A stretch of DNA of 64,000 nucleotides from Eledone cirrhosa (lineage: Eukaryota), in assembly GCA_964016885.1 (NCBI GenBank), contig OZ024741.1, positions 126,480,001 to 126,544,000 of the forward strand. The letters run 5' to 3'. This document shows, one piece after another, positions 8,593 through 64,000 of this stretch. Within the stretch, counting starts at the first letter, position 1, and the number at the start of each line of letters is the position of its first letter. Under the pieces are notes generated by a model. The model was not told where the DNA came from, made no database searches, and saw only the letters and a program-made list of their open reading frames with translations. The position numbers and the translations under genes are program-made.

Positions 8593-11147
8593 GTAATATT
8601 AATGATGGGGCATTGGGAGAATCCCGAGAGCATCGATTAAATACCTTGCGGTACTTAATTATCGTTGATTTCAAATCTCATCGAAATCAACTTAGCTTTT
8701 CAACTTTCTGGAGTTTGTATAATAAAATACCAGTCAAATAATGCTATCCTTATAATAGACTAACACATCTTCCTAATCGATATAATAGACAAATAGACTA
8801 GTTCATCTTCTCAATCAATAAAATAAATAGCCTAGCACACACCCCTATCAATATAATAGACTAACCGATCTTCTGAAATTATTGGCCTGTGCCTACATTA
8901 GAAATAACATTAAGAGGTAAATCGATAGATCATCGAAGGAAATGCTATTCCATTCAGGACAATGTTTCTTCTCGGCGGATAAAATAGTTTGTGTCTATTT
9001 CTGGAATCAATATAATTGACTATCTCCCTGCTATAAAGAAGCACATGGGGTGGTAAACAAGTTAGTTCTGAGATTGATTGCGCACAATGTTGATTGCACA
9101 TAATATAATGTCCATTGACAATAACCGTAGAACATGCCGGTAGAAACTAATTTTTTATGACACTGTTTTTTTAAGGATTGATAATTTTGTTTTATTGTTT
9201 TGGCAGAGTTGTTAGAATGTCGGATAGAATGCTTTGTGGTATTTGTTTTGACTCTTTGCTCTCTAAGTTCAAATCCTGCCGAGGTCGATAAAAAAAGTAC
9301 CAGTCTAGTACTGGGGTCGATTTTCCCCCATTGTCTCCGTCACACTTCCATTCTCTCACTTTCTGTATTAAGACATGGAGAGGGGATGGGCTGTGCCAGG
9401 TTTTAAAATGCCCAAGAAACGCAGTATGGCAGACCAGCTCCCATGCGAATCCCCCAGAAGTTACAGGACCATACATACAGTGAGAGAAATGTAGAGCTCA
9501 TTACATCTTCCATAGTTTTTGACTCGCATGATTGCAAAACAATGCATTTTTCTGTCACCCAAGGACAGATTACGGCTACCACCCAGTTAGACTTCGGTAG
9601 AATTTAAACATAGAACACTAAGAGTTAGAACAAATGTCGCAGTGTATCTGCTCTACCAATTCTGCAAATACCGCCGCCTTTGACTTAATCGTATTGACAC
9701 CGAAAGGATGAAAGGTAAAATTGTTCACGACGTTATTGAAACTCAGAGCACAGAGAAACTGAACCAATAGCGCCAGCCATTTTGTCATTCTCTCTAACTC
9801 TGCTGCCAATTGATCACCTAAAAATATTCTTCTGATACATGTTTAAGTGGCAGATAGAAAGTGGATTTTGATGAAGGACTAAAGGTTGTTTTCTGAGAGG
9901 ATTCACAGTTCAGGCATTTGTTGATTTAATAGCAGACTATAATTGACTCAACAAATAACCAATAACCGACAGTTTGTTGGATCATCTATTATCTGAGGAA
10001 ACAGATTGAAAGAAAAGAGATAAAAAGATAATGAAGTGCTATACAAAGCTGCAAGATCAAAACAATAATGGAAGTGCTAAAGAGAATTTCTATAAAAACA
10101 GTAGAAGCAGATTTTTAGAACAAACTAATAAAACATTTTCAGCAACAAAACAAACGTATCAAGAGATGTTATTGTTTGGGATTAGCTAATCATGTGATAT
10201 TCACAGCTGACAGAATCACAAAATAAGGCCATGCTTCATCAACCATTACTGTAAGGTTGTGATTTCTTCAATAAAGTTTGGGTATTATGGAATGGAACTA
10301 CGTCGACTTCAACGATGAGTGTTCCCTTTGTTAAATCAACGAAACAGTCTGCTAATAAAATTAATGTGTAAATGGCCTAGCATTCCACAGAATTCTCAGA
10401 GATTTAGCGTGACCCAGTGTGTGACAAAGCTGGCCATTTAAATTGATACAGACCACGCGACGGGTTTCCAAACAGTTTACGACTCATTAATTTCACTCAA
10501 GGCATGGATCTACCTGAGATTATAATGAATGACACACAGTGAAATCCAGCCTGGGATCTAATGATTGCGAAGCAAGCGAATTTACCATGCGCCCATACTG
10601 AAACTAATTGGATGTCATATTATTTGGCATAATCTTAATGCACTCCCCCCCTCCAAGTATTAAAATTTGCATATGTGTATGTATGCATGAATGCATGTGT
10701 CTATATACGCATACATGCATATGCGCATGTCCGCATGAATGTGTGTATAAAGGAAGGTGGGCGGCTTTGTGCGTTCGGTTCATCCTCAGCAAGATTCCTT
10801 ATTTCAGGTTGCTCCAGTCAACTGGCAAAAATGAATTGTACTTGTAGTTCAAAAGGTCAGCCTTGTCACACTATCACGCCGAATCTTCCTGAGAATTGCA
10901 TTAACATAACATACTTCTATAGAACGCTCAGCCATTTGCACGCTAATTTTCCGACGTTTTCACTTTGTCGAACAATCGTAACCGACAGAGGTACAACTGG
11001 AATCCCCCAAATATTACGCATGCACACATACACAGAAACAGACACACACACACACACAGACACAAACACACACACACGTCTGTGTATATAGTATATATGT
11101 GCGTGTGTATATATATATATACACACGTACATATACTATACACACTA

Positions 11148-12885
11148 CTAAACCCAGCACGCACGGAAATGGGACTAGTCAGTAAGTCCATACTTAGAAA
11201 CATAGTTAAGACCATTAAGACCAAGTCCAACCTGTCCCAGTGGGAGAACAGCAACTCCGTCATTAAGTGGCTTAACTCCTTCAACTCCAAAAAACAAAGT
11301 TCACGCAATTCGACATTGTAAATTTTTACCCGTCGATCTCAGAGACCCTGTTAAACAAAGCGTTGGAATTTGCTACTACTTACACTACCGTCCATGTTTT
11401 AGACAGGGAGATCATCGCACACTGCTGGAAAACCCTCCTCTTCAACAACGGAGTAGCCTGGGCAAAGAAGTCAACCACTTCAGAACTATTCGACGTCTCC
11501 ATGGGATCGTTTGACAGTGCTGACGTATGCGACTTGGTTGGCTTATTTATTTTAGACATATTACGTGTTAGATTCCCGGACTTCCACACGGGAATATACC
11601 GCGACGAGGGCCTGATCTTATCGAGCCATAAAGTGGTCACGGCCTCGACCGGTTCAAAAAAGATTTAACTTCTACTTTTAATGAGTTAGGACTTAGGATA
11701 AAGGTAGCTACCAACCTCTATAGCGTAGATTTCTTCAGACCCTTCCATAAGCTAAACGAAAAACTTAATTACATACACAGGACTCATGTCACCCTCCTAC
11801 TGTTTTTAGAAACTTTGTATATAATATCAATACTGGAATCTGTAACATCTCCTCTAATAAGGCTATCTTTGACAGAGCGGCCCCCTACTATAACACGGCG
11901 TTAGCTAACAGCGGCTTCTCGCAACCAATTACATACTCCCCCACTAACAACAACAGCAATAAGAGAAGAAATCGTAACAATAGACAAACTATCTGGTTCT
12001 CTCCCCCCTTCTCACTCAACGTTACAACTAATGTAGAAAAAAGATTTTTAGCTCTTAGATAGACACTTTCTCATAGGTCAGAAATACCGCTTCATCTTTA
12101 ACAGACAGAGAGTAAAACTAGGGTACTCCTACGCTAAGAATATGAAGGCCCACATCACCAACAGTCCTAAGAGCAGCATCCCACCAGGATGCTCTTTCCC
12201 CAAGCCTGAAGATTGTCCCCTTCAACAGCAATGCAACACACCCGCTGTAGTTTATGAAGCTGTGGTCACTTACAACCGACCAAATCAACCACAGGAGGTC
12301 AAATCCTATGTGGGTATGGCGGAGGGCCGATTTAAGGAACGCTCCCTGAACCATAAGTCAACCTTTAGGTACCCGGACAAGTGATCCTCCACGAAGCTCG
12401 CGAGAACGTATGGTCCCTCAAAGACTCAGGTATAGACTATTCCATTCAATGGAAAGCTATCGCTAAGTCCAAGCCATACGCAAGGGGCAATCCGTCTTGT
12501 GGACTGTGTATTTAAGAAAGGATAAATATTCTAACCAGATTACCCAATAGCGATTGCCTAAATTCAAGAAATGAAATCTTCTCACGTTGTCCACATATCT
12601 GGAAGCACCTCTTGCATAACTACAAAGCTCCGGATTGAATAACAACAACATTCTAATTTTCTAATCAACTCGAACATTTTATTCCGGACTTTCGCAGTTG
12701 TCTTCCCTACACATTTTGCCCGTGGTTTTGTATCGCTTGGGTGAAGTGACGGTTTCTGTGCATGTGCGTTGATACGGTTATTCTACCTGTTCCGTATAAC
12801 CATGACCAGTCCGAGCTGAAGATCCGCGTAAGGTGAAACAATTGTTCTCGGTATGGTGAACTAACTGTTGTGTTACTACTTCTAT
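11148..12885 (+). mobile_element. 5'-truncated, decayed Penelope-like element (Hydra-type, family A)
   Basis: Frameshifted RT fragments LLNPARTEMGLVSK, QFDIVNFYPSIS, FDVSMGSFDSADVCDLVG, IYRDEGL; endonuclease fragments CPLQQQCNTPAVVY, SYVGMAEGRFKER; 3' pLTR with hammerhead; ends in TA-rich tract. Confidence 0.9.
12805..12857 (+). ncRNA. Minimal type I hammerhead ribozyme
   Basis: CCGAG-CTGAAGA-TCCGCGTAAGGT-GAAA-CAATT-GTT-CTCGG; stem I CCGAG/CTCGG extended by ACCA/TGGT; palindromic stem III AACAATTGTT. Confidence 0.8.
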
Positions 12886-13221
12886 ATATAAAATATATAT
12901 ATAGTGTGAATGTTTCTATATATATATATGTAGATAGATTTTATATATATATATATATAAACGGAAAAATTGAAACGAAATTTCATTTCCCACTCTTAGT
13001 ACGGCTGTTACTTAAATATAAGTATGTACACGTACATACATATATGTATACAGACGTACAGTAGTATGTATATATATATACATACATGCACACATATATA
13101 TATGTACGTATAGATTCACCGAACATTTATTATAATGCTCGGTGTTTGTAAACAAACATCCCGTATTAAGCCGTAGTGTCCAGCAACCATCGTTGCTCGT
13201 TTGTTCAACACTGACAAAGGA

Positions 13222-13264
13222 ACGCTGTACAAGTTTCAAGCTTATTAGCTATCGTCAGCAACGT
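13222..13264 (-). ncRNA. Type I hammerhead ribozyme
   Basis: Minus strand ACGTTG-CTGACGA-TAGCTAATAAGCTT-GAAA-CTT-GTA-CAGCGT; stem III palindrome has one substitution. Confidence 0.75.
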
Positions 13265-13643
13265 ATACCTTCCTGCCAGATTGTTGAACGTATATACTTA
13301 CCTTATGCATATTAACGGCTGAGTAGTCCAATTTGCATATCGAGTGGGTTAATCAGCCCCGGGTGCACCGAAAACGATAAACGGAAAAAATGAAACGAAA
13401 TTTCATTTCCCACTCTTACTACGGCTGTTACTTAAATATAAATATGTACACGTACATACATATATGTACACAGACGTACAGTAGTATGTATATATATATA
13501 CATGCATGTACACACATATATATGTACGTATGGATTCACCGAACATTTATTAAAATGCTCAGTGTGTTTGTAAACAAACATCCCAAATTAAGCCGTAGTG
13601 TCCAGCAACCATCGTTGCTCGTTTGTTCAACACTGACAAAGGA

Positions 13644-13686
13644 ACGCTGTACTAGTTTCAAGCTTATTAGCTTTCGTCAGCAACGT
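13644..13686 (-). ncRNA. Type I hammerhead ribozyme
   Basis: Minus strand ACGTTG-CTGACGA-AAGCTAATAAGCTT-GAAA-CTA-GTA-CAGCGT. Confidence 0.85.
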
Positions 13687-13822
13687 ATACCTTCCTGCCA
13701 GATTGATGAACGTACACCCGGTGCACCCGGCTGATTAACCCACTCGATATGCAAATTAGGCTACTCAGCCGTTAATATGCATAAGGTAAGTATATACGTT
13801 CAACAATCTGGCAGGAAGGTAT

Positions 13823-13865
13823 ACGTTGCTGACGATAGCTAATAAGCTTGAAACTAGTACAGCGT
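13823..13865 (+). ncRNA. Type I hammerhead ribozyme
   Basis: ACGTTG-CTGACGA-TAGCTAATAAGCTT-GAAA-CTA-GTA-CAGCGT. Confidence 0.85.
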
Positions 13866-14066
13866 TCCTTTGTCAGTGTTGAACAAACTAGCAACGATGG
13901 TTGTTGGACACTACGGCTTAAAACGGGATGTTTGTTTACAAACACACTGAGCATTATAATAAATGTTCGGTGAATCCATACGTACATATATATATGTGTG
14001 CATGTATGTATATATATATACATACTACTGTACGTCTGTATACATATATGTATGTACGTGTACATA

Positions 14067-14099
<33 letters not shown>

Positions 14100-14104
<5 letters not shown>

Positions 14105-14447
14105 ATATTAATAAATGGAAACTATATTTATAAAACCAGTGGAGATAGTACATTTATAATAAATGTACTATCTCCACTATCCAGGAAGCTCCAACCGTAA
14201 AGGTTGTCTTTTTTCCGGATATGTCAATATTTATTTATAAAACAAATCTGTATTTTATTTGATGAAAGCGCACCATAATTTGCCTTGGTTCCCCTTGAAA
14301 TATGTATAATAAAATAAATATGGTTTTATAAATATAGTTTCCATTTATTAATATATTGTGTATTTACTCCACTAACCTATTGATTGCTTTATATCAGTCA
14401 TAAAAATGTTTAAGCTTGTTGAATCCCAACCAATTAAATATAACCTC

Positions 14448-14450
<3 letters not shown>
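14100..14450 (+). mobile_element. Solo pLTR fragment of PLE family C with inverted 5' piece and mutated hammerhead (14251-14316, TTGATGA)
   Basis: Homologous to 51255-51540 and 57170-57450; 14101-14138 is the inverse of 14321-14358; bounded by (TA)n. Confidence 0.75.
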
Positions 14451-14500
<50 letters not shown>

Positions 14501-14584: not shown

Positions 14585-14820
14585 AAAGAATAAAAAGTTA
14601 GAAATTACATTTGTTCCTCTGTACTGATTTCCTCATAATATATTAAACAATATAAATGGCATAGTTACCAACGATAGCCAATTGGATTAAACTCTAAACT
14701 GTCTTTTACCTGTCTTACTGTGGAATATAAAATCACATTGAGCTTTCAATTATTATTTGCCTTATATGGTTGTTTTTCAACTCGTCGAAAGTTTTATATA
14801 TATATATATATATATATATA

Positions 14821-15040
14821 GCAGAGTATAAAAGTTTTAATATAGTAGAGCTTCTACAGGACTAGAACTGTTAAAGATATAAATACCACTACTTAATTGG
14901 ACAGCCAGCTCCCTGATGATTTCTCATTAATGTAACAGTTCTAGTTCTGTATAAGCTCTTCTATATTAAAACATTTATACTCTGCTATGTATTGAGTACC
15001 TTACTTACTGCGGTTACCCCCGATTCAACCCGGAATAACT
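14821..15040. repeat. Short inverted-repeat insert between (TA)n tracts, probable pLTR remnant
   Basis: 14821-14873 is an imperfect inverse of 14933-14985; CTGATGA at ~14913; related sequence at 30294-30340. Confidence 0.5.
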
Positions 15041-15300: not shown

Positions 15301-15645
<345 letters not shown>

Positions 15646-15858: not shown

Positions 15859-15903
<45 letters not shown>

Positions 15904-15905
<2 letters not shown>

Positions 15906-16013
15906 AACGAGTAGGACCCCGACGGCTGAGCTCAAGCCGTTTCGACGGCTAATTCTGTCCAGAATTAACCGTCGAAACGGCTTGAGCTCAGCCGTCGGGG
16001 TCCTACTCGTTCC
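15904..16013. repeat. 110-bp palindrome (54-bp arms, 2-nt loop, one mismatch) containing the 3' half of a hammerhead
   Basis: GGAACGAGTAGGACCCC...CTG TC CAG...GGGGTCCTACTCGTTCC; symmetry continues into flanking (TA)n and (TC)n/(AG)n. Confidence 0.95.
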
Positions 16014-16049
<36 letters not shown>

Positions 16050-22431: not shown

Positions 22432-25088
22432 TGCGTTCACAGATTGACTTTGTTAGTTTCAGAAGATCCCGTTAAGGGTGTAAGCAGCGATTCTTAGCTT
22501 AAACTTTAATCTGTTATTTTAATAAATATTTGCTCTACGGTTCTTATATATTTGATATATATTTATCCTTATCAAGCTCTCTTTGGATTTTAGTCTTCAA
22601 ATTTATTATTATTACTATTTGACTCTCTCGGTTAAGCACTCTATTGACTTATATTCATCATGCAGAAACAACATCTGAATATTTCTACAAAGAACATACC
22701 CGTACCAAGCAGGAAAACATACCTAAAACTCCTGATACAGAAAACAGACGCGTTCATTAAAAGGTTGCGTTGGCGTGCCTTTTATTTCGATAATCAGAGA
22801 AAAGCAGACAACAAACAGGATTAATTTGGGTTTAAAACCTATAATAAACCTCCGAGTAACCCAGCATTGCTACCCTTCGAAAATGATGTCTTGGAACTCA
22901 TACGGAGTATCAAATTTCGGAATAGGAGCAATTCCTTCCAGCAGGACCTGAAGAATAGAATTCGTTCTATTAAGTATTATAATGCCGTGCACGTCCATTC
23001 CGACAAAACTGGCAACCTATATCAAGTGGAGCGCAGTACTTACCATCAACTGCTACATAATGCTGTAACTAAGGATTACCGTAAAACTAATCGGAGCGTC
23101 ATTAATGAAATCAACGATGCTGGGTTTAAAATCACCTCTGATCTCAACATCCTGGACCGGACCGAACCTCTGGACCCTATTTCTCCCCACTTTACCCTGA
23201 AGGATCACAAATCCAATTTTCCGAACAACTCCTCTATTGGGTTTGTTAACCATACGAAGTCCGATTTAGGTAGACTTAATAAAAGGATTCTTGATAGAAT
23301 TATACCTGAAATTAGAAGTTTGGCCCCTCTTGCACTGTGGAACAATTCTTTCGCGGTAATTGATTGGTTCAACGGCATATGCAACAAGGAACATTGCCAT
23401 TTTATCCAATTCGACATCAATAATTACTACTCCTCCATCACTTTACCACTTTTCTTAGAGCTATCAATTTCGCTAAAACCCTCACGGTGATTAAGGATTT
23501 CGAAGTTGATGTCATCCTCAATGCCCGTGAGTCGGTGATTAATTTTGACGACTCTATTTGGATTAAAAAATCTTATCGGCCTTTTCCTTCTTTTCTCTGT
23601 CAAGAAAGAATTTCCCAACGAGGGCGGTGGTTTATACCGTGATGATGGTCTTTTGACCATGACAAAGTGCGGCCCACGTGCTTGCGACAGGTTCAGTAAA
23701 GAACTCACAGCCTTCTTTAAAGGCTTCAACCTCTCCATACAGGTTGAGGCCAACCTCTACGTCGTTAATTACCTCGACGGTACCCTCAATTTATCGAATG
23801 GATTGCATTACCCGTATAGAAAGCCGAATGATACGCTTAATTACATAAGTAAGCATTCTAACCATCCTGCCAGCATAACCAAGAACCTGGTAAGAAACGT
23901 TTATTTGAGGCTTTCCCGACTATCTACTAACGAGCATATTTTCAACGACCATTCCACATATTACAATGAAGCACTTGCTCAAAGTGGATTTGTCGATAAG
24001 GTAGCATATACAGAGTACGAGAATAGACCTAGAAGAAATAGATCCCGACGCATTATATGGTATAGCCCACCATATAATATGGAGGTGGCCACACCATTAG
24101 CTAAGATCTTTCTCTCCCTTATTATGAAGCATTTTCCCCCTACACATAAATATAGCAAAATTTTTAATAGAAATACTATTAAAATTTCTTACTCTACGAC
24201 TCCTAACCTTGCACATAACATCACAGCTTCAAATTTAGCTAAACTACCTAGCCGTAGGAACACGTGCAACCCTGTAGTTAGTACTAACTGTAATTGTAGG
24301 AATCGGGTTGACTGCCCCCTATCCGGGAAATGCCTCTCTAGTAACATTGTCTACAAATGTAAGGTTGTAACACCCACGTCCCGTAGGGCCTACATAGGGT
24401 TAACCGCTAATAGATTCAAGCAGCGTCTTTACATGCATACCCATTCTTTTCATAACCCTTTAAGAAGGAATATGACGTCACTTTCAGCTTATATCTGGGG
24501 TCTAAAAGACAACCACACCCAATATAAGTTACACTGGGAGATCTTAGCCAAAGCTAGATCGTATAACGGAAATAAAAGACCATGTGACCTCTGCGCCGCT
24601 GAGGCCCTGGAAATACTCTACGCCAAAGACCACATCTTAAACAAAAAATCTGAGGCAATTTCGGCTTGTAAACATAAATTGCACAAAACTTTCCTGTATT
24701 ACAGCTCCACATTATAACCTAATGGATAGTACGAACTATACGCGGATATTTTACGTCTTGATGTGGTAGCTAAGTATATGTTATGTTTATACCATTACTT
24801 ATTTGTATAGGTATGTTTTGTGAAGGTACGTATACTTTCTCGTACGTATATTTGATTGTATATGTTATGGCGTATATATTATATATTCTGGTTCATATGC
24901 TTTTGGTTATATGTATACGTGAGTTTTGCGTCTGTGTGAGTATGCGGGTTCGTACGTATGTAGGGTGTGTGTATATGTGTACTTTGTGTTTTGGTTGACG
25001 TACGTCTCCGAACATATGTGTATTTACGTGTGTGCGTTTGTTATATACGTATTTATTTATTTATATACGTTTATTTAATTATATGTAT

Positions 25089-26807: not shown

Positions 26808-27040
26808 GTAAATATACACGGGTGTGTATGATTGTGTATAGAAGATTATATTAATAAGAGGAATTCCAACTTTGTCTGATTTACTCGTTTTATTTACAAT
26901 CCTTTAAAATATATATAATATGGTATTATAATGAAATAGTATGATAGAATATTAAATTCTAAGTGTTAATTGAACAAGTACTTTCATGCTTTCGCAATCT
27001 TCAGGTTCATGATATGTGGTGACAGTCGAGTTTGCAATTT
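26808..27040 (-). mobile_element. ~235-bp hammerhead-bearing unit, copy 2
   Basis: Near-identical to 15410-15645. Confidence 0.75.
26971..27009 (-). ncRNA. Minimal type I hammerhead ribozyme
   Basis: Identical to 15571-15609. Confidence 0.8.
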
Positions 27041-27087: not shown

Positions 27088-27147
27088 AGAAAATGAGGTT
27101 TTTTTAAATGAAAAAACAAACAATGAGATGTCCTACACAACTGAACA

Positions 27148-27332
27148 TATAAGGAAAAGAAATCGAAAATGCAACTGGAATGTTTTTAAGAATATTTATT
27201 TGTTTCCTTTCCCGGTTTCACAGTTCTTATGCTTTTCAAAAGTAGAATTGAGATGGAGAAACGGGTAAAGGAAACAAATAAAATATTCTCAAAAAGACTC
27301 CAGTTGCATTTTCTATTTCTTTTCCATATATA
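27148..27332. repeat. Inverted-repeat pLTR-like fragment with variant hammerhead
   Basis: 27148-27219 is an imperfect inverse of 27257-27330; homologous to 40797-40922. Confidence 0.6.
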
Positions 27333-27334
27333 TA

Positions 27335-28290
27335 CTAGACATGAAAAATGCGCAAGCTCAAAAGTGCCACAGAATGTTATAATAAACCTTCAAAAGTGTG
27401 GGACTAGAGTTGTTGCTAAAAAATATTGTAATCATTATATATCGTACATTCTGTGGCATCCTTTATAAAAATAGCTTAAACCAACGAAGCCTTTATTTTT
27501 ACGCTATTTCACTTAGTTAATTCTTAGAGTGTAACATATAAAAATATGATTTACAACTATAAAATAAATTAATTAATATAATAACAGAGCTGCGGAGCTG
27601 AAATTTAGGAAATAATGGAGTATCGGATCCTGAGTTGGAGCCAGTCAATTTTTGACCGACTCCGCAGCCCTGTATAATACATTTCATATTAAAGTTATTA
27701 ATAAACCTATTTTACACTTCATGCAAATTACCACGAGATATTGATATTAGATATAAGATACAGCGCAATATCTACAGCTGTAAAAGTACGAAAGCGAAGT
27801 AATAATAAGTGGCTTAAGGTAATTCCAATATGAAAGTTTGTAGTGATAAAAATTTGATAATGCAATACGATTGTTAATATTATAGTTCTATGAAAATGTA
27901 ACAATAGATAACTAAATTATTTTACTATTAGTATATTTAAGAAATTATCATTATAGATTTGATCGTTCATATAAGCATCATATTAAGTTTCAACACAATT
28001 ATTTTGTTACTATGAGTATATGATAATAATATTACGTAATTATTTATAGCTGTTATTACATTAAACATAGATGTATTTATTTTTATATGTTACACTCTAA
28101 GAATTAACTAAGTGAAATAGCGTAAAAATAAAGGCTTCGTTGGTTTAAGCTATTTTTATAAAGGATGCCACAGAATGTACGATATATAATGATTACAATA
28201 TTTTTTAGCAACAACTCTAGTCCCACACTTTTGAAGGTTTATTATAACATTCTGTGGCACTTTTGAGCTTGCGCATTTTTCATGTCTAGT
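27335..28290. repeat. Long inverted repeat (~210-bp arms, ~530-bp spacer)
   Basis: 27335-27545 (ACTAGACATGAAAAATGCGC...) is the reverse complement of 28080-28290, with no mismatch seen by eye. Confidence 0.9.
27585..27672. mobile_element. 88-bp hAT-type MITE
   Basis: TIRs CAGAGCTGCGGAG / CTCCGCAGCCCTG; flanks TATAATAA / TATAATAC (7 of 8 TSD match). Confidence 0.6.
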
Positions 28291-61131: not shown

Positions 61132-63519
61132 ATGGATTATTACAACATAACCAATTCAACTAAAGACATTCCTATACCTGGTAAATCTGAATTCACCAAA
61201 CTTCTTATTGAAAAAACTGACTCCTTCGTAAGAAGACTTAGATGGACAGCCTATTTCTATGACCAGCGCCTAAAAGGGAACTTTCATACCAAAGAACATA
61301 ACTTCCTCGATCATCTTTTTAATTCTAGACGAAATCCTCCCTCCAACAAAAATCTAGTACAATTCGAGGAAGAATTAACTAAATTAATAAAAAATCTTAA
61401 ATTCAAGAGATACCCTTACAAAGGACAAGAGCACCTTGTAAATCTCAAGAACACAATCTCTAACCTAAATTCCTCAAAAAATGTTTTAGTCCACTCTGAC
61501 AAAACCAATAACTTATATGGTATTTCCAAGGATAATTATAACAACCTTATCCTAAAGGAACTTAGGAAAAAGTATCGTAAAACCAACCATGAAAATTTAG
61601 AATGCATAAACCTTGAAGCCTATGAGATTATGTCAAAACTTGGCATTGAAAAAAAGACCGAACCATTCCTCCCAAGAACTCCGAGGATAAATCTGAAGGA
61701 TCACAAAAACAATTTTCGCACTGAACTACCTGTTAGATTAATCGCCCCCTCTAAATCTGATCTGGGGGTTGTTAGTAAAGCCATCTTGGATAGAATTATC
61801 CATTGCTCTTCTTTGAACCTAAATTTATGGATTGGTACTTCTGAAGTGATTGGCTGGTTCAACAAATTGGATAATAAAAACAAACTAAAATTTATTCAAT
61901 TTGATATTGCCAGCTACTATTCCTCCATTTCGCCTTCACTTCTCAATAATGCTCTATCTTTCGCACTTAAATATTCTGACATCACCACAGATGAACTTCA
62001 CATCATCCTCACCGCACGTAAAACCATCCTAGAGTTCAACAACGAATATTGGACCAGAGCCGATACCTCTAACAACTTCGACATCACAATGGGAGCATCC
62101 GATTCATCCCAATTGACTGATTTAATTGGTATCTTCATTTTGAACTCTTTGAGTCGGAAAATTCCTCAACTTCGCGGTGGAATTTATCGTGACGATGGAC
62201 TCTTTACTATCCTAAATTGCAATATAGTTAACCTTAATATTATTAAGAACAATATACGTAATCTCTTTAACCAACATAACCTAAAAATTGAATTTGATAA
62301 TAGTATCAAACTAGCTAATTTCTTGGATGTATCTCTTAATCTTGACACTGGCCTATATTACCCTTACCATAAAAACAATGAGAACCTAAATTATGTTAAC
62401 TTTAAATCTAACCATCCTACCAATATCAAGAATGCTATAGTTAATAATATTGGAAAAAGAATATCTAACATATCTTCTAATAAAAACATCTTTGATGCTA
62501 ACTCCAATTACTATAATAACGTACTTTCTAAAGCCGGCTATCCAGATAAAATCAAATATAGTAAAGAAACAAATTCTAGAAAAACTTACAGTAGAATAAT
62601 TAATCATGACCATTCCAATAATTTTAATAAAAGACCTAGATACAAAAACATAATCTGGTATAATGCTCCTTTCTCCATCTCTATTAATAACAATATTCCT
62701 AAATTATTTTTTAGTGCCTTAAATAAATGCTTCCCTCCCTCACATATCTATAGTAAAATATTTAACAAACACACCATCAAATTTTCGTATTCTACATCCT
62801 CCAATATTTCCAACATCATCTCTAAACACAACAATAAAATACTAAATACTAAATCTCTTCCTTCCAATATTGAATTTCATAATAACAGTAATAGTACTCC
62901 CGACGTCATTGTAAACCCTAGGCTAACTTCTGTAAACCCAAATACAACGTCAAACACAACTTCGCTAAATGTTCATAATCCAACTCTAAATCAAGAAACT
63001 ATTATTCCTATTATTCCTATCGCAAACAACTTCTCCAATCCAATTCCTTCTATAGATAACACTAGGTCACTCATTAATAATCTCTCTAATTGCAACTGCC
63101 GCATTAAAAATAAATATCCTCTCAACAACCATTGTCTCGATAAAAACTTAATTTATGAATGTAAAATTATAACTAGCACCAATTCCTTCACTTATTTTGG
63201 CTTCACTTCCACCTCTTTTAAAGCTCGTCTCTATAATCATCATTCATCTTTCAAATACAAACTTAAAAGAACCAACACTGCTCTCTCAGAACTCATATGG
63301 TCCTTAAAAGACAAAAACATTAAATATACCATCTTTTGGAAGAAGGTTTCTTCTGCATCCTCATACTTGAACAGCTCTCTATCTAAAATCTGTAATCTCT
63401 GCCTAAATGAAAAATTTACCATTATCTCTAACCTAGATTCTATAATAAATAGACGTACAGATTTGTTTTCTATCTGCCTGCATAAATTCCATAGAACTGT
63501 TCACAAAGTATACAGTTAA
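61132..63519 (+). CDS. PLE reverse transcriptase + C-terminal GIY-YIG endonuclease (795 aa from the likely ATG; frame open from 61072)
   Basis: MDYYNITNSTKDIP aligns with the family B start; RRLRW, SDKTNNLY, LKDHK, QFDIASYYSSI, FDITMGASDS, YRDDGL, NFLDV, SNHP, CNC, LIY...YFG, CNLC. Confidence 0.93.
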   Translation: MDYYNITNSTKDIPIPGKSEFTKLLIEKTDSFVRRLRWTAYFYDQRLKGNFHTKEHNFLDHLFNSRRNPPSNKNLVQFEEELTKLIKNLKFKRYPYKGQEHLVNLKNTISNLNSSKNVLVHSDKTNNLYGISKDNYNNLILKELRKKYRKTNHENLECINLEAYEIMSKLGIEKKTEPFLPRTPRINLKDHKNNFRTELPVRLIAPSKSDLGVVSKAILDRIIHCSSLNLNLWIGTSEVIGWFNKLDNKNKLKFIQFDIASYYSSISPSLLNNALSFALKYSDITTDELHIILTARKTILEFNNEYWTRADTSNNFDITMGASDSSQLTDLIGIFILNSLSRKIPQLRGGIYRDDGLFTILNCNIVNLNIIKNNIRNLFNQHNLKIEFDNSIKLANFLDVSLNLDTGLYYPYHKNNENLNYVNFKSNHPTNIKNAIVNNIGKRISNISSNKNIFDANSNYYNNVLSKAGYPDKIKYSKETNSRKTYSRIINHDHSNNFNKRPRYKNIIWYNAPFSISINNNIPKLFFSALNKCFPPSHIYSKIFNKHTIKFSYSTSSNISNIISKHNNKILNTKSLPSNIEFHNNSNSTPDVIVNPRLTSVNPNTTSNTTSLNVHNPTLNQETIIPIIPIANNFSNPIPSIDNTRSLINNLSNCNCRIKNKYPLNNHCLDKNLIYECKIITSTNSFTYFGFTSTSFKARLYNHHSSFKYKLKRTNTALSELIWSLKDKNIKYTIFWKKVSSASSYLNSSLSKICNLCLNEKFTIISNLDSIINRRTDLFSICLHKFHRTVHKVYS

Positions 63520-64000
63520 TATTCAATTCTTTATCAATTTAGAATCTTTTCTCAAAGGCACATATACATACACCTCTTTAAAATATACCCATCTACCTTA
63601 CTTTAAAGGGCATTATACACTCTATAATACTTGTTTACTCATTACCCTCATTCTATCTCCACCTTGTAAAATCATAACATATACATTTGTTGTTTTGACG
63701 TTAGAATATTCATCCGCAATCATTATTATTTTTTCTCTCTATCATAAATCTTTTTAATCTCAATTTCATCCTTAATTTATTATTTTTTTCTCCCCATCAA
63801 CGAACTCATTATTAATACATATTAACTCTTTATTCGCATATATTATCAATTCCTTCAATATACAAACTTTAACTCCACATTATTTTTCTCAAATCCTTCT
63901 ACACACAAACCTTAATAATTTTTCTCTTCGTTAATTTTGAAATTGCCACAATATCTTATCAACATACATTTCTTTTTTTGACGTTAGAATATTCATCCAC

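Follow-up and report, generated by a model that had tools for sequence, protein, structure and literature searches.

How did a short hammerhead repeat come to lie as a tandem run joined to an inverted copy between two (TA)n tracts, and what kind of enzyme put it there? The window, by which we mean the whole 64,000-nt stretch of DNA analysed, lies on a 416-Mb contig of a 3.0-Gb genome. Its G+C content varies from 9 to 43% in 2-kb steps, and TA microsatellites are abundant. The sequence at 12957-14076 is one insertion of a 420-nt non-coding hammerhead repeat, whose two arms meet 5' to 5' and whose outer ends both abut (TA)n. The features are listed below, where P and D stand for the proximal and distal fixed 3' ends of the repeat.

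11130-12881, plus strand: decayed, 5'-truncated Penelope-like element (PLE) with RT and GIY-YIG remnants, a separate insertion in the same TA tract
12883-12957: left (TA)n target tract
12957-13714, minus strand: direct arm of 758 nt, 1.8 units of the 420-422-nt repeat; its 3' end at 12957 is D and runs into (TA)n
12957-13016, minus strand: tail of about 59 nt between P and D, found only at this end of the insertion, with a predicted hairpin that is kept in a distant 469-nt family
13222-13264, minus strand: type I hammerhead motif 1, predicted cut between 13228 and 13227, stem III palindrome broken by a point change
13644-13686, minus strand: type I hammerhead motif 2, predicted cut between 13650 and 13649, A at position 10.1 where the family has U
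13715-13718: head-to-head joint with four extra bases; these and the beginning of the plus arm make a short fold-back
13719-14076, plus strand: inverted arm, 0.85 unit, with its 3' end at P (14069-14076)
13823-13865, plus strand: type I hammerhead motif 3, family-typical, predicted cut between 13859 and 13860
14069-14108: right (TA)n target tract
40943-42594, plus strand: array of the sister subfamily, 3.4 units of 478 nt, ending at P

Numbered from the predicted cleavage site, the minus arm (13714 to 12957) covers unit positions 356 to 420, 1 to 420 and 1 to 273. The plus arm (13719 to 14076, 358 nt) runs from position 280 round to 217, and its P end is blurred by TA microhomology over 14069-14076. 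The original prediction described two tandem units followed by an inverted one. This layout is correct, but the second tandem unit is not complete and has only 338 nt. The inverted unit was said to start at the palindrome GGTGCACC, which is indeed there but is present in every unit and is not a product of the inversion. The inverted arm and the array near 41 kb do stop at the same position, both ending at the CATACTTA site. The left end at 12957, which the prediction lacked, is the second fixed 3' end, D, about 59 nt beyond P. Kinship with the 478-nt unit was borne out by BLAST identities of 73-75% and, for representative units, by 355 identities in 417 aligned columns with 64 gap columns.

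Copies of the repeat are dispersed, with matches on many contigs. Exact matches in the genome number 24,001 for a degenerate core pattern of 31 nt, none for its reversed control and 25,925 for an independent 29-nt tail pattern; both figures count units, not insertions. Unit lengths in the family are 420-433 and 466-538 nt, and units of the same array group together on a tree. The proposal of two diverged subfamilies was right about the divergence but not about the number, since at least four unit-length subfamilies exist, each with its own dispersed copies. The repeat is made of non-coding tandem units, at least two of them consecutive and each with a type I hammerhead, as in non-LTR retrozymes. 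None of the units holds an ORF with RT and GIY-YIG endonuclease, by which an autonomous PLE is recognized, and the five PLE proteins of the window gave no tblastn match to the repeat units at E<=1.

Two further families carry related hammerheads. A distant homologous family has units of 466-469 nt, 4,094 pattern matches, a canonical G10.1-C11.1 pair and a GUC triplet. Its arrays (L220:79-1307, L326-L345) reach 31 units and follow the same two-end rule as the 420-nt family; in one 14-unit array (L339:806-7711) unit variants alternate along the array, pointing to local duplication or a mixed template. The second family, of 310 nt, has 9,827 pattern matches and is homologous to the 420-nt repeat in the hammerhead only. 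Its tandem copies (L099:7203-8897, L166-L195) share the U.U hammerhead architecture described below, with compensated stems I and II, and have ends 26-31 nt apart; the family is probably very young, because its copies are near-identical.

A motif scan found one type I hammerhead per unit, three in the 12957-14076 insertion and three in the 41-kb array, with the core CUGANGA / GAAA / UH, three stems and ends in stem I. The family-typical motif has a 6-bp stem I, CUGACGA, U.U at 10.1-11.1, a 4-bp stem II, GAAA, a palindromic 6-nt stem III/loop and a GUA triplet. As had been noted from the two loci, the third stem I pair is U-G in the 12957-14076 insertion and G-U in the 41-kb array, and N7 is C and U, respectively. 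Across units this pair is U-G in 126 (71 loci), G-U in 47 (26 loci) and A-U in 15 (12 loci), with U.U in 5 units (3 loci), U-A in 2 and C-G in 1 as the rarer states. Positions 10.1-11.1 are U.U, not paired, in all 99 locus calls. U.U is likewise present in the neighbouring PLE and in the 310-nt family; in the homologous 469-nt family, G-C stands at these positions. This G10.1-C11.1 pair is described as highly conserved in hammerheads (PMC4209133). The Rfam hammerhead models gave no match at gathering score in the window and none at E<=10 in 12600-14500. Rfam miRNA-family matches, far below gathering score and on TA-rich hairpins, were rejected.

Self-cutting as a double hammerhead appears feasible from predicted folds, in which the double hammerhead has -19.4 kcal/mol; the best dimer fold reaches -20.7 and the monomers 2 x -8.1. 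In the predicted monomer fold, C3-G5 is paired to loop III, which counts against activity, and eight of nine predicted Xenopus retrozyme dimers are reported to be without cleavage (bioRxiv 10.64898/2026.07.22.740005). Because of the U.U at 10.1-11.1, the C3-G5 pairing and the Xenopus dimer result, we treat cleavage by the predicted hammerhead as a possibility. Further hammerhead motifs in the window lie on the minus strand at 15568-15612, 26968-27012 and 51968-52018, the first two with U.U at 10.1-11.1.

Conservation was measured in 67 loci picked by the tail pattern, regardless of the hammerhead. No variant common to at least three loci was seen at any of the 11 core positions, at the eight stem II positions or at the U.U pair. 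Minor alleles amount to 1.1% in the core, 14.6% in unit positions 7-107, 7.7% in 274-383 and 5.2% in 170-213. N7, loop II and stem I pair 3 are variable, and the 43-nt hammerhead window as a whole ranks only 56 of 420 for conservation. Compared with the 469-nt family, the core is identical at 11/11 positions, the other hammerhead positions at 59%, the tail at 75% and the rest of the unit at 50-61%. The prediction that selection keeps the ribozyme thus gains support for the core, which has no shared variants, a minor-allele share of 1.1% where the two long spacer segments have 7.7-14.6%, and full identity in the distant family. A comparison of hammerhead and unit had been suggested as a check, and here the core is invariant but the whole 43-nt motif does not stand out. 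The companion claim that the spacer drifts is too simple as it stands, given this rank, the higher identity of the tail than of the non-core hammerhead and a compensatory switch in the stem that encloses the tail. At one pair of that stem, 67 units have G-C, 51 have A-U and 5 have other combinations; the switch is probably one event.

In eight hand-picked hammerheads from two families, 100% of 95 cells are paired and 7 of 12 pairs are altered on both sides, with few independent events, as six of the seven double changes stem from the single split to the 310-nt family. Three features recur in the predicted circular folds of three families: a rod surrounds the hammerhead, P is preceded by a long hairpin, and the tail contains a further hairpin. 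For the repeat itself the predicted circle is 67-68% paired, with z of -7.7 and -10.3 against up to 40 shuffles, values that are inflated by TA-rich hairpins; the sense strand folds better than the antisense strand (-7.7 vs -6.4 and -10.3 vs -5.2). RNAalifold on the tail region returned two short hairpins with one of eight pairs changed on both sides and lost the outer stem because the distant family was misaligned; it lends no support to the tail structure. From the conservation of core and tail, the switch in the tail-enclosing stem and the common circular folds, we conclude that the ribozyme core is kept and that the RNA structure around P and D is kept too.

The 3' ends were surveyed in the 30 best BLAST loci, the first 100 core-pattern and first 100 tail-pattern places on one contig, and ten further BLAST places. 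From this census 17 overlapping loci, 20 already-covered tail-pattern loci and two arms seen twice were removed, and 8 of 218 arms failed the length/identity filter. D was defined as unit positions 258-277 (mostly 273) and P as 205-222, where TA microhomology blurs the end; together the two windows make up 9% of the unit. The lower bound of D was moved from 262 to 258 for trimmed alignments, by which two pairs of the second sample became P-D. The 3' junctions, proposed earlier as a check for randomness, are non-random: among 208 arms from 127 loci, 100 end at D, 77 at P and 31 elsewhere, so that 177 of 208 end at P or D. Longer TA stretches within the unit seldom serve as ends, and target homology alone therefore does not select the end sites. 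The flanks are mostly TA tracts; clear non-TA duplications among the listed unpaired arms are of 11 nt (L002) and 9 nt (L083).

The inverted joints are all head-to-head (63/63). After removal of 2 local duplicates, the 61 inverted pairs comprise 43 with one arm ending at P and the other at D, 2 P-P, 1 D-D, 14 in which an end lies at neither site and 1 at an edge. Among classifiable independent pairs, 43 of 46 are P-D (p=2e-10 against 0.5). By sample, P-D pairs make up 25/28 of the first, which was chosen by the hammerhead, and 18/18 of the second, which was biased against short P-P pairs because it was picked mostly by the tail pattern. A third sample consisted of 27 of 30 loci from a relaxed hammerhead pattern, one duplicate and two loci of the 310-nt family being excluded. 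Here 18 of 41 arms end at D, 15 at P and 8 elsewhere, and all 8 classifiable pairs are P-D, and 4 of 12 pairs have an end at neither site and are unclassifiable. Of 12 joints, 11 are head-to-head, and the sole exception is a tail-to-tail joint inside a rearranged locus. The P-D rule thus holds for 51 of 54 classifiable inverted insertions, with three exceptions (2 P-P, 1 D-D).

The same rule was seen outside the 420-nt family. In the 469-nt family the homologous ends lie about 70 nt apart, all 14 classifiable pairs are P-D (of 19 seen, one duplicate, two at edges and two with another end were left out) and single arms end at D in 4 of 4. The 310-nt hammerhead family has 5/5 P-D pairs, and two ORF-bearing PLE families of the window have two ends each, 61 and 83 nt apart. 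Among unpaired arms of the repeat, the 5' end has a TA tract no more than 12 nt away in 15 of 44 that end at D and in 1 of 25 that end at P (Fisher p=0.006); about 8 of the 25 P arms carry a short inverted D piece that was missed by the filter.

The 5' ends are scattered over the unit. Only the expected number lies within 10 nt of the predicted cut site (10/210, expected 10), 158 of 208 arms run across that site, and the sampled arms showed neither enrichment of 5' ends at the cut site nor a fixed ORF joint. The best explanation is that the predicted hammerhead cleavage site does not set the insertion boundaries. Both arms of an insertion have one haplotype. Within a subfamily, divergence from arm to arm is roughly half or less of that from locus to locus (2.25 vs 3.79%, 0.82 vs 5.36% and 3.87 vs 7.35%) and is about that of tandem neighbour units. 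For 20 of the 40 pairs, the partner arm ranks within the closest 5% of units; the median rank is 0.04, and that of the 12957-14076 insertion is 0.12. Gene conversion could be another source of this likeness. Of the rare variants in neighbouring units, which bear on a rolling circle versus a linear multimer, 25 are common to both units and 222 are not.

In LINE-1 twin priming, a head-to-head inversion results when both target strands serve as primers on the same RNA; the position of the second site varies, and there is hardly any overlap between the arms. The present insertions have two fixed sites, and the sequences of their arms overlap. If twin priming took place in its simple form on a linear RNA, either arm should have its 5' end where the other was primed. 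This is not seen, which counts against two-strand priming, and among the inverted pairs neither the classical twin-priming geometry nor a fold-back geometry is enriched.

Taken together, these insertions were probably made from a non-coding hammerhead tandem repeat that a PLE enzyme copied in trans, with two-strand priming at D and P on one RNA. The copying enzyme would be a TA-targeting, likely Hydra-clade, Penelope-like reverse transcriptase-endonuclease. It would introduce a nick into each strand of a (TA)n tract. A single RNA would then serve as template for two cDNAs that start at D and, about 59 nt upstream, at P and are afterwards joined head-to-head. In either arm the 3' end of the sense RNA faces outwards, so that each can be read as first-strand cDNA for which one of the target strands was the primer. 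D would be the first-primed site, since simple TA-flanked insertions end there, and the template would be an uncleaved multimer or circle, as it must exceed one cleaved monomer in length. The hammerhead may cut slowly, as a double hammerhead paired via the palindromic stem III (cf. PMC4209133), and so might release monomers or circles. The original prediction had read the inversion as a sign of PLE-mediated insertion, and the fixed 3' ends (177/208), the tail, the head-to-head joints and the TA targets agree with this.

Biochemical work on an anole PLE protein bears on the scheme (PMC11167929). That protein acts on both strands, cutting and extending each, and its two internal start sites delimit the tail; insertion proceeds without need for hammerhead cleavage, and uncleaved RNA is used. 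In bulk, the start sites are equal between the strands, which counts against one site per strand (PMC11167929). The P-D rule suggests that there is one start site per strand in each event, with D first.

The strongest competitor keeps the same element and the same PLE enzyme but has both ends begin at D, one of them being trimmed to P when the intermediate is resolved, or has the inverted arm arise by self-priming on the antisense template. Genomic ends would look alike under two priming sites and under one priming site with trimming, which counts against our preferred explanation; moreover, the tail of PLEs has been ascribed to endonuclease resolution (PMC8557442) and self-priming is another possible route (PMC8557442, PMC3846280). 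Unpaired TA-flanked insertions nearly all end at D, as trimming would have it, and in two pairs (L061, L074) the arms start at one position with a palindromic overlap of 16 nt. Mirror-image joints of this kind are exceptional, however: the two 5' starts lie within 30 nt of each other in 9 of 43 pairs, where 6.2 are expected, and 43 of 61 joints show an overlap or insert of -5 to +6 nt. Both tail boundaries are, in addition, start sites of reverse transcription in vitro (PMC11167929). We consider this account unlikely.

It is considerably less probable that the arrays are not mobile units but terminal-repeat (pLTR) debris of an autonomous PLE, amplified locally by unequal crossing-over. Xenopus retrozymes have been derived from pLTRs, with local amplification proposed (bioRxiv 10.64898/2026.07.22.740005), and the alternating 14-unit array of the 469-nt family would fit such a process. 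From D, however, the arms of the repeat pass directly into the next unit and not into an ORF; their 5' ends are uniform over the unit where a fixed ORF joint would be expected; even short inverted arms span unit boundaries; the units lack protein similarity; and the subfamilies, at least four in number by unit length, are dispersed on their own. Very improbable is a DNA-level satellite spread by extrachromosomal circles or replication fold-back with an inherited or incidental hammerhead look, which suits the TA-rich, hairpin-rich unit but not the polarity (fixed 3' ends, random 5' ends, head-to-head joints only), the invariant core with 7/12 pairs changed on both sides across families, or the better fold of the sense strand.

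For copying in trans by a PLE enzyme, the PLEs of the window are of interest. Among the PLE remnants is an 816-aa ORF at 61069-63519, with tblastn relatives at 11288-12617, 22651-24690, 32793-33050, 34404-35593, 45093-45863, 56702-56989 and 59052-60221. This intact ORF carries the motifs RW, DKT, a CxCx5C-like linker, CxxC and CxH, by which, following PMC8557442, the element likely belongs to the Hydra clade. Pfam returned no family for four of the five window PLE proteins and a weak RVT_1 match for that at 37357-38766. The near-intact Hydra-clade-like element at 57821-64000 has an inverted upstream arm, hammerheads at 60857 (plus) and 58017 (minus), many copies that are 97-99% identical, and two ends 83 nt apart. 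The neighbouring PLE at 11130-12881 is similar to this Hydra-clade-like ORF, has its own hammerhead motif at 12811-12851 and stops at the proximal of its family's two ends, which are 61 nt apart. A different PLE type at 35906-40157 and 46256-48031 has a DKS motif, a CxxC linker, a long Asn-rich N-terminus and rearranged inverted copies.

No autonomous PLE homologous to the repeat unit was found by tblastn. Nor did blastn show one among eight stretches of PLE sequence in the window and 69 loci, and pLTR searches on two of the PLE families gave no partner for the repeat. Of two relaxed hammerhead patterns used in the search for a partner, one gave the 310-nt family only among the 100 places listed and the other mostly point mutants of the 420-nt family. 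Three mixed insertions join an arm of the repeat to an arm of another element, with complementary ends in L150 and L132 and P plus P in the 41-kb array; they were left out of the argument because later insertion with deletion explains them equally well. In L150 (2038-3450, TA-flanked), an inverted end of the 61069-type PLE and part of its ORF adjoin a 478-type arm that ends at P, the result of a template switch or of insertion with deletion. At L083:4666-7404, a PLE ORF is interrupted by a repeat array in antisense orientation, with a target duplication of 9 nt; the compound was later duplicated in inverted orientation.

The repeat is a non-LTR retrozyme-type element with PLE-like insertion anatomy, and its kind is already known. 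Non-coding tandem hammerhead repeats have been described as non-LTR retrozymes (PMC7229834) and proposed to be non-autonomous PLE derivatives (bioRxiv 10.64898/2026.07.22.740005). With the animal elements of these two reports the repeat shares non-coding tandem units some hundreds of bases long, a type I hammerhead in each of them, dispersal in thousands of copies, a highly self-paired predicted circle and co-occurring PLEs. It differs in unit size (420-540 nt, against 170-400 nt in PMC7229834 and 51-972 nt in bioRxiv 10.64898/2026.07.22.740005) and in its U.U at 10.1-11.1, and its hammerhead and circle are predictions from sequence. The fixed 3' ends, tail and inverted arms do not figure in the retrozyme descriptions available from the same two sources.

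These are features of PLEs, for which tandem and inverted copies with a tail at one end are standard (PMC8557442, PMC3846280) and of which the Hydra clade targets (TA)n (PMC8557442). The likeness extends to partial tandems, an inverted 5'-truncated arm, two fixed ends, a hammerhead with palindromic stem III and Hydra-clade-like (TA)n target choice (PMC8557442, PMC3846280, PMC11167929, PMC4209133). Unlike PLEs, the repeat has no ORF, its tail is about 59 nt against 30-40 nt, the two fixed ends are located 214-273 nt past the cut site, and there is no pLTR homology among the PLE stretches compared. Non-autonomous Chlamys PLEs such as MRC1 are likewise non-coding, multicopy and head-to-tail and are mobilised in trans, as the present repeat probably is; in contrast to it, they have the 3' sequence of an autonomous family and belong to a clade described as lacking canonical hammerheads (PMC8557442).

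The subfamily as framed in the original prediction is ordinary, and its value lies in the P-D rule. How the tandem and inverted structures of PLEs and their tail on one side arise has been called an unresolved matter (PMC8557442), and animal retrozymes have been tied to PLEs by co-occurrence and by similarity to pLTRs (PMC7229834; bioRxiv 10.64898/2026.07.22.740005). Here, a hammerhead repeat that has no ORF bears the full PLE insertion signature. What was a qualitative description, a tail on one side, becomes a rule for each insertion (51/54), by which an open question on PLE integration can be addressed directly in the existing in vitro system. In a literature search mostly confined to papers outside subscription, we found none on cephalopod hammerhead retrozymes, PLE tails in retrozymes or the pairing of start sites per insertion; the U.U form or the repeat family may figure in the supplements of PMC4209133 (hammerhead variants) and PMC8557442 (PLE families).

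As a tentative extension, which we rate somewhat below an even chance, PLE integration may be an obligately asymmetric two-strand reaction, in which a dimeric enzyme on one RNA starts the first strand at D and the second at P. The tail would then be the footprint between the subunits, and retrozymes would be RNA parasites selected to present the tail structure and a U.U-closed hammerhead. If this is true, tens of thousands of insertions in several families, with tails of 26-83 nt, would record the rule, and the recognition code of the enzyme could be read from them.

Other TA-flanked elements are present in the window. Palindromic mini-elements lie at 14100-14460, 14814-14992, 15868-16049, 27326-28297, 31021-31084 and 40212-40759. 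The sequence at 14158-14490 belongs to a family with another hammerhead type, in which C3 is mutated here; intact copies are at 51341, 55203 and 57258. Small TA-flanked hairpin elements without a hammerhead (40798-40945 and 27088-27331 in the window; L221-L245) have two ends about 61 nt apart, with one of each in 11 of 25 loci and the others unclassifiable. Since the same joint occurs in many copies, the hairpin element seems to move as a unit.
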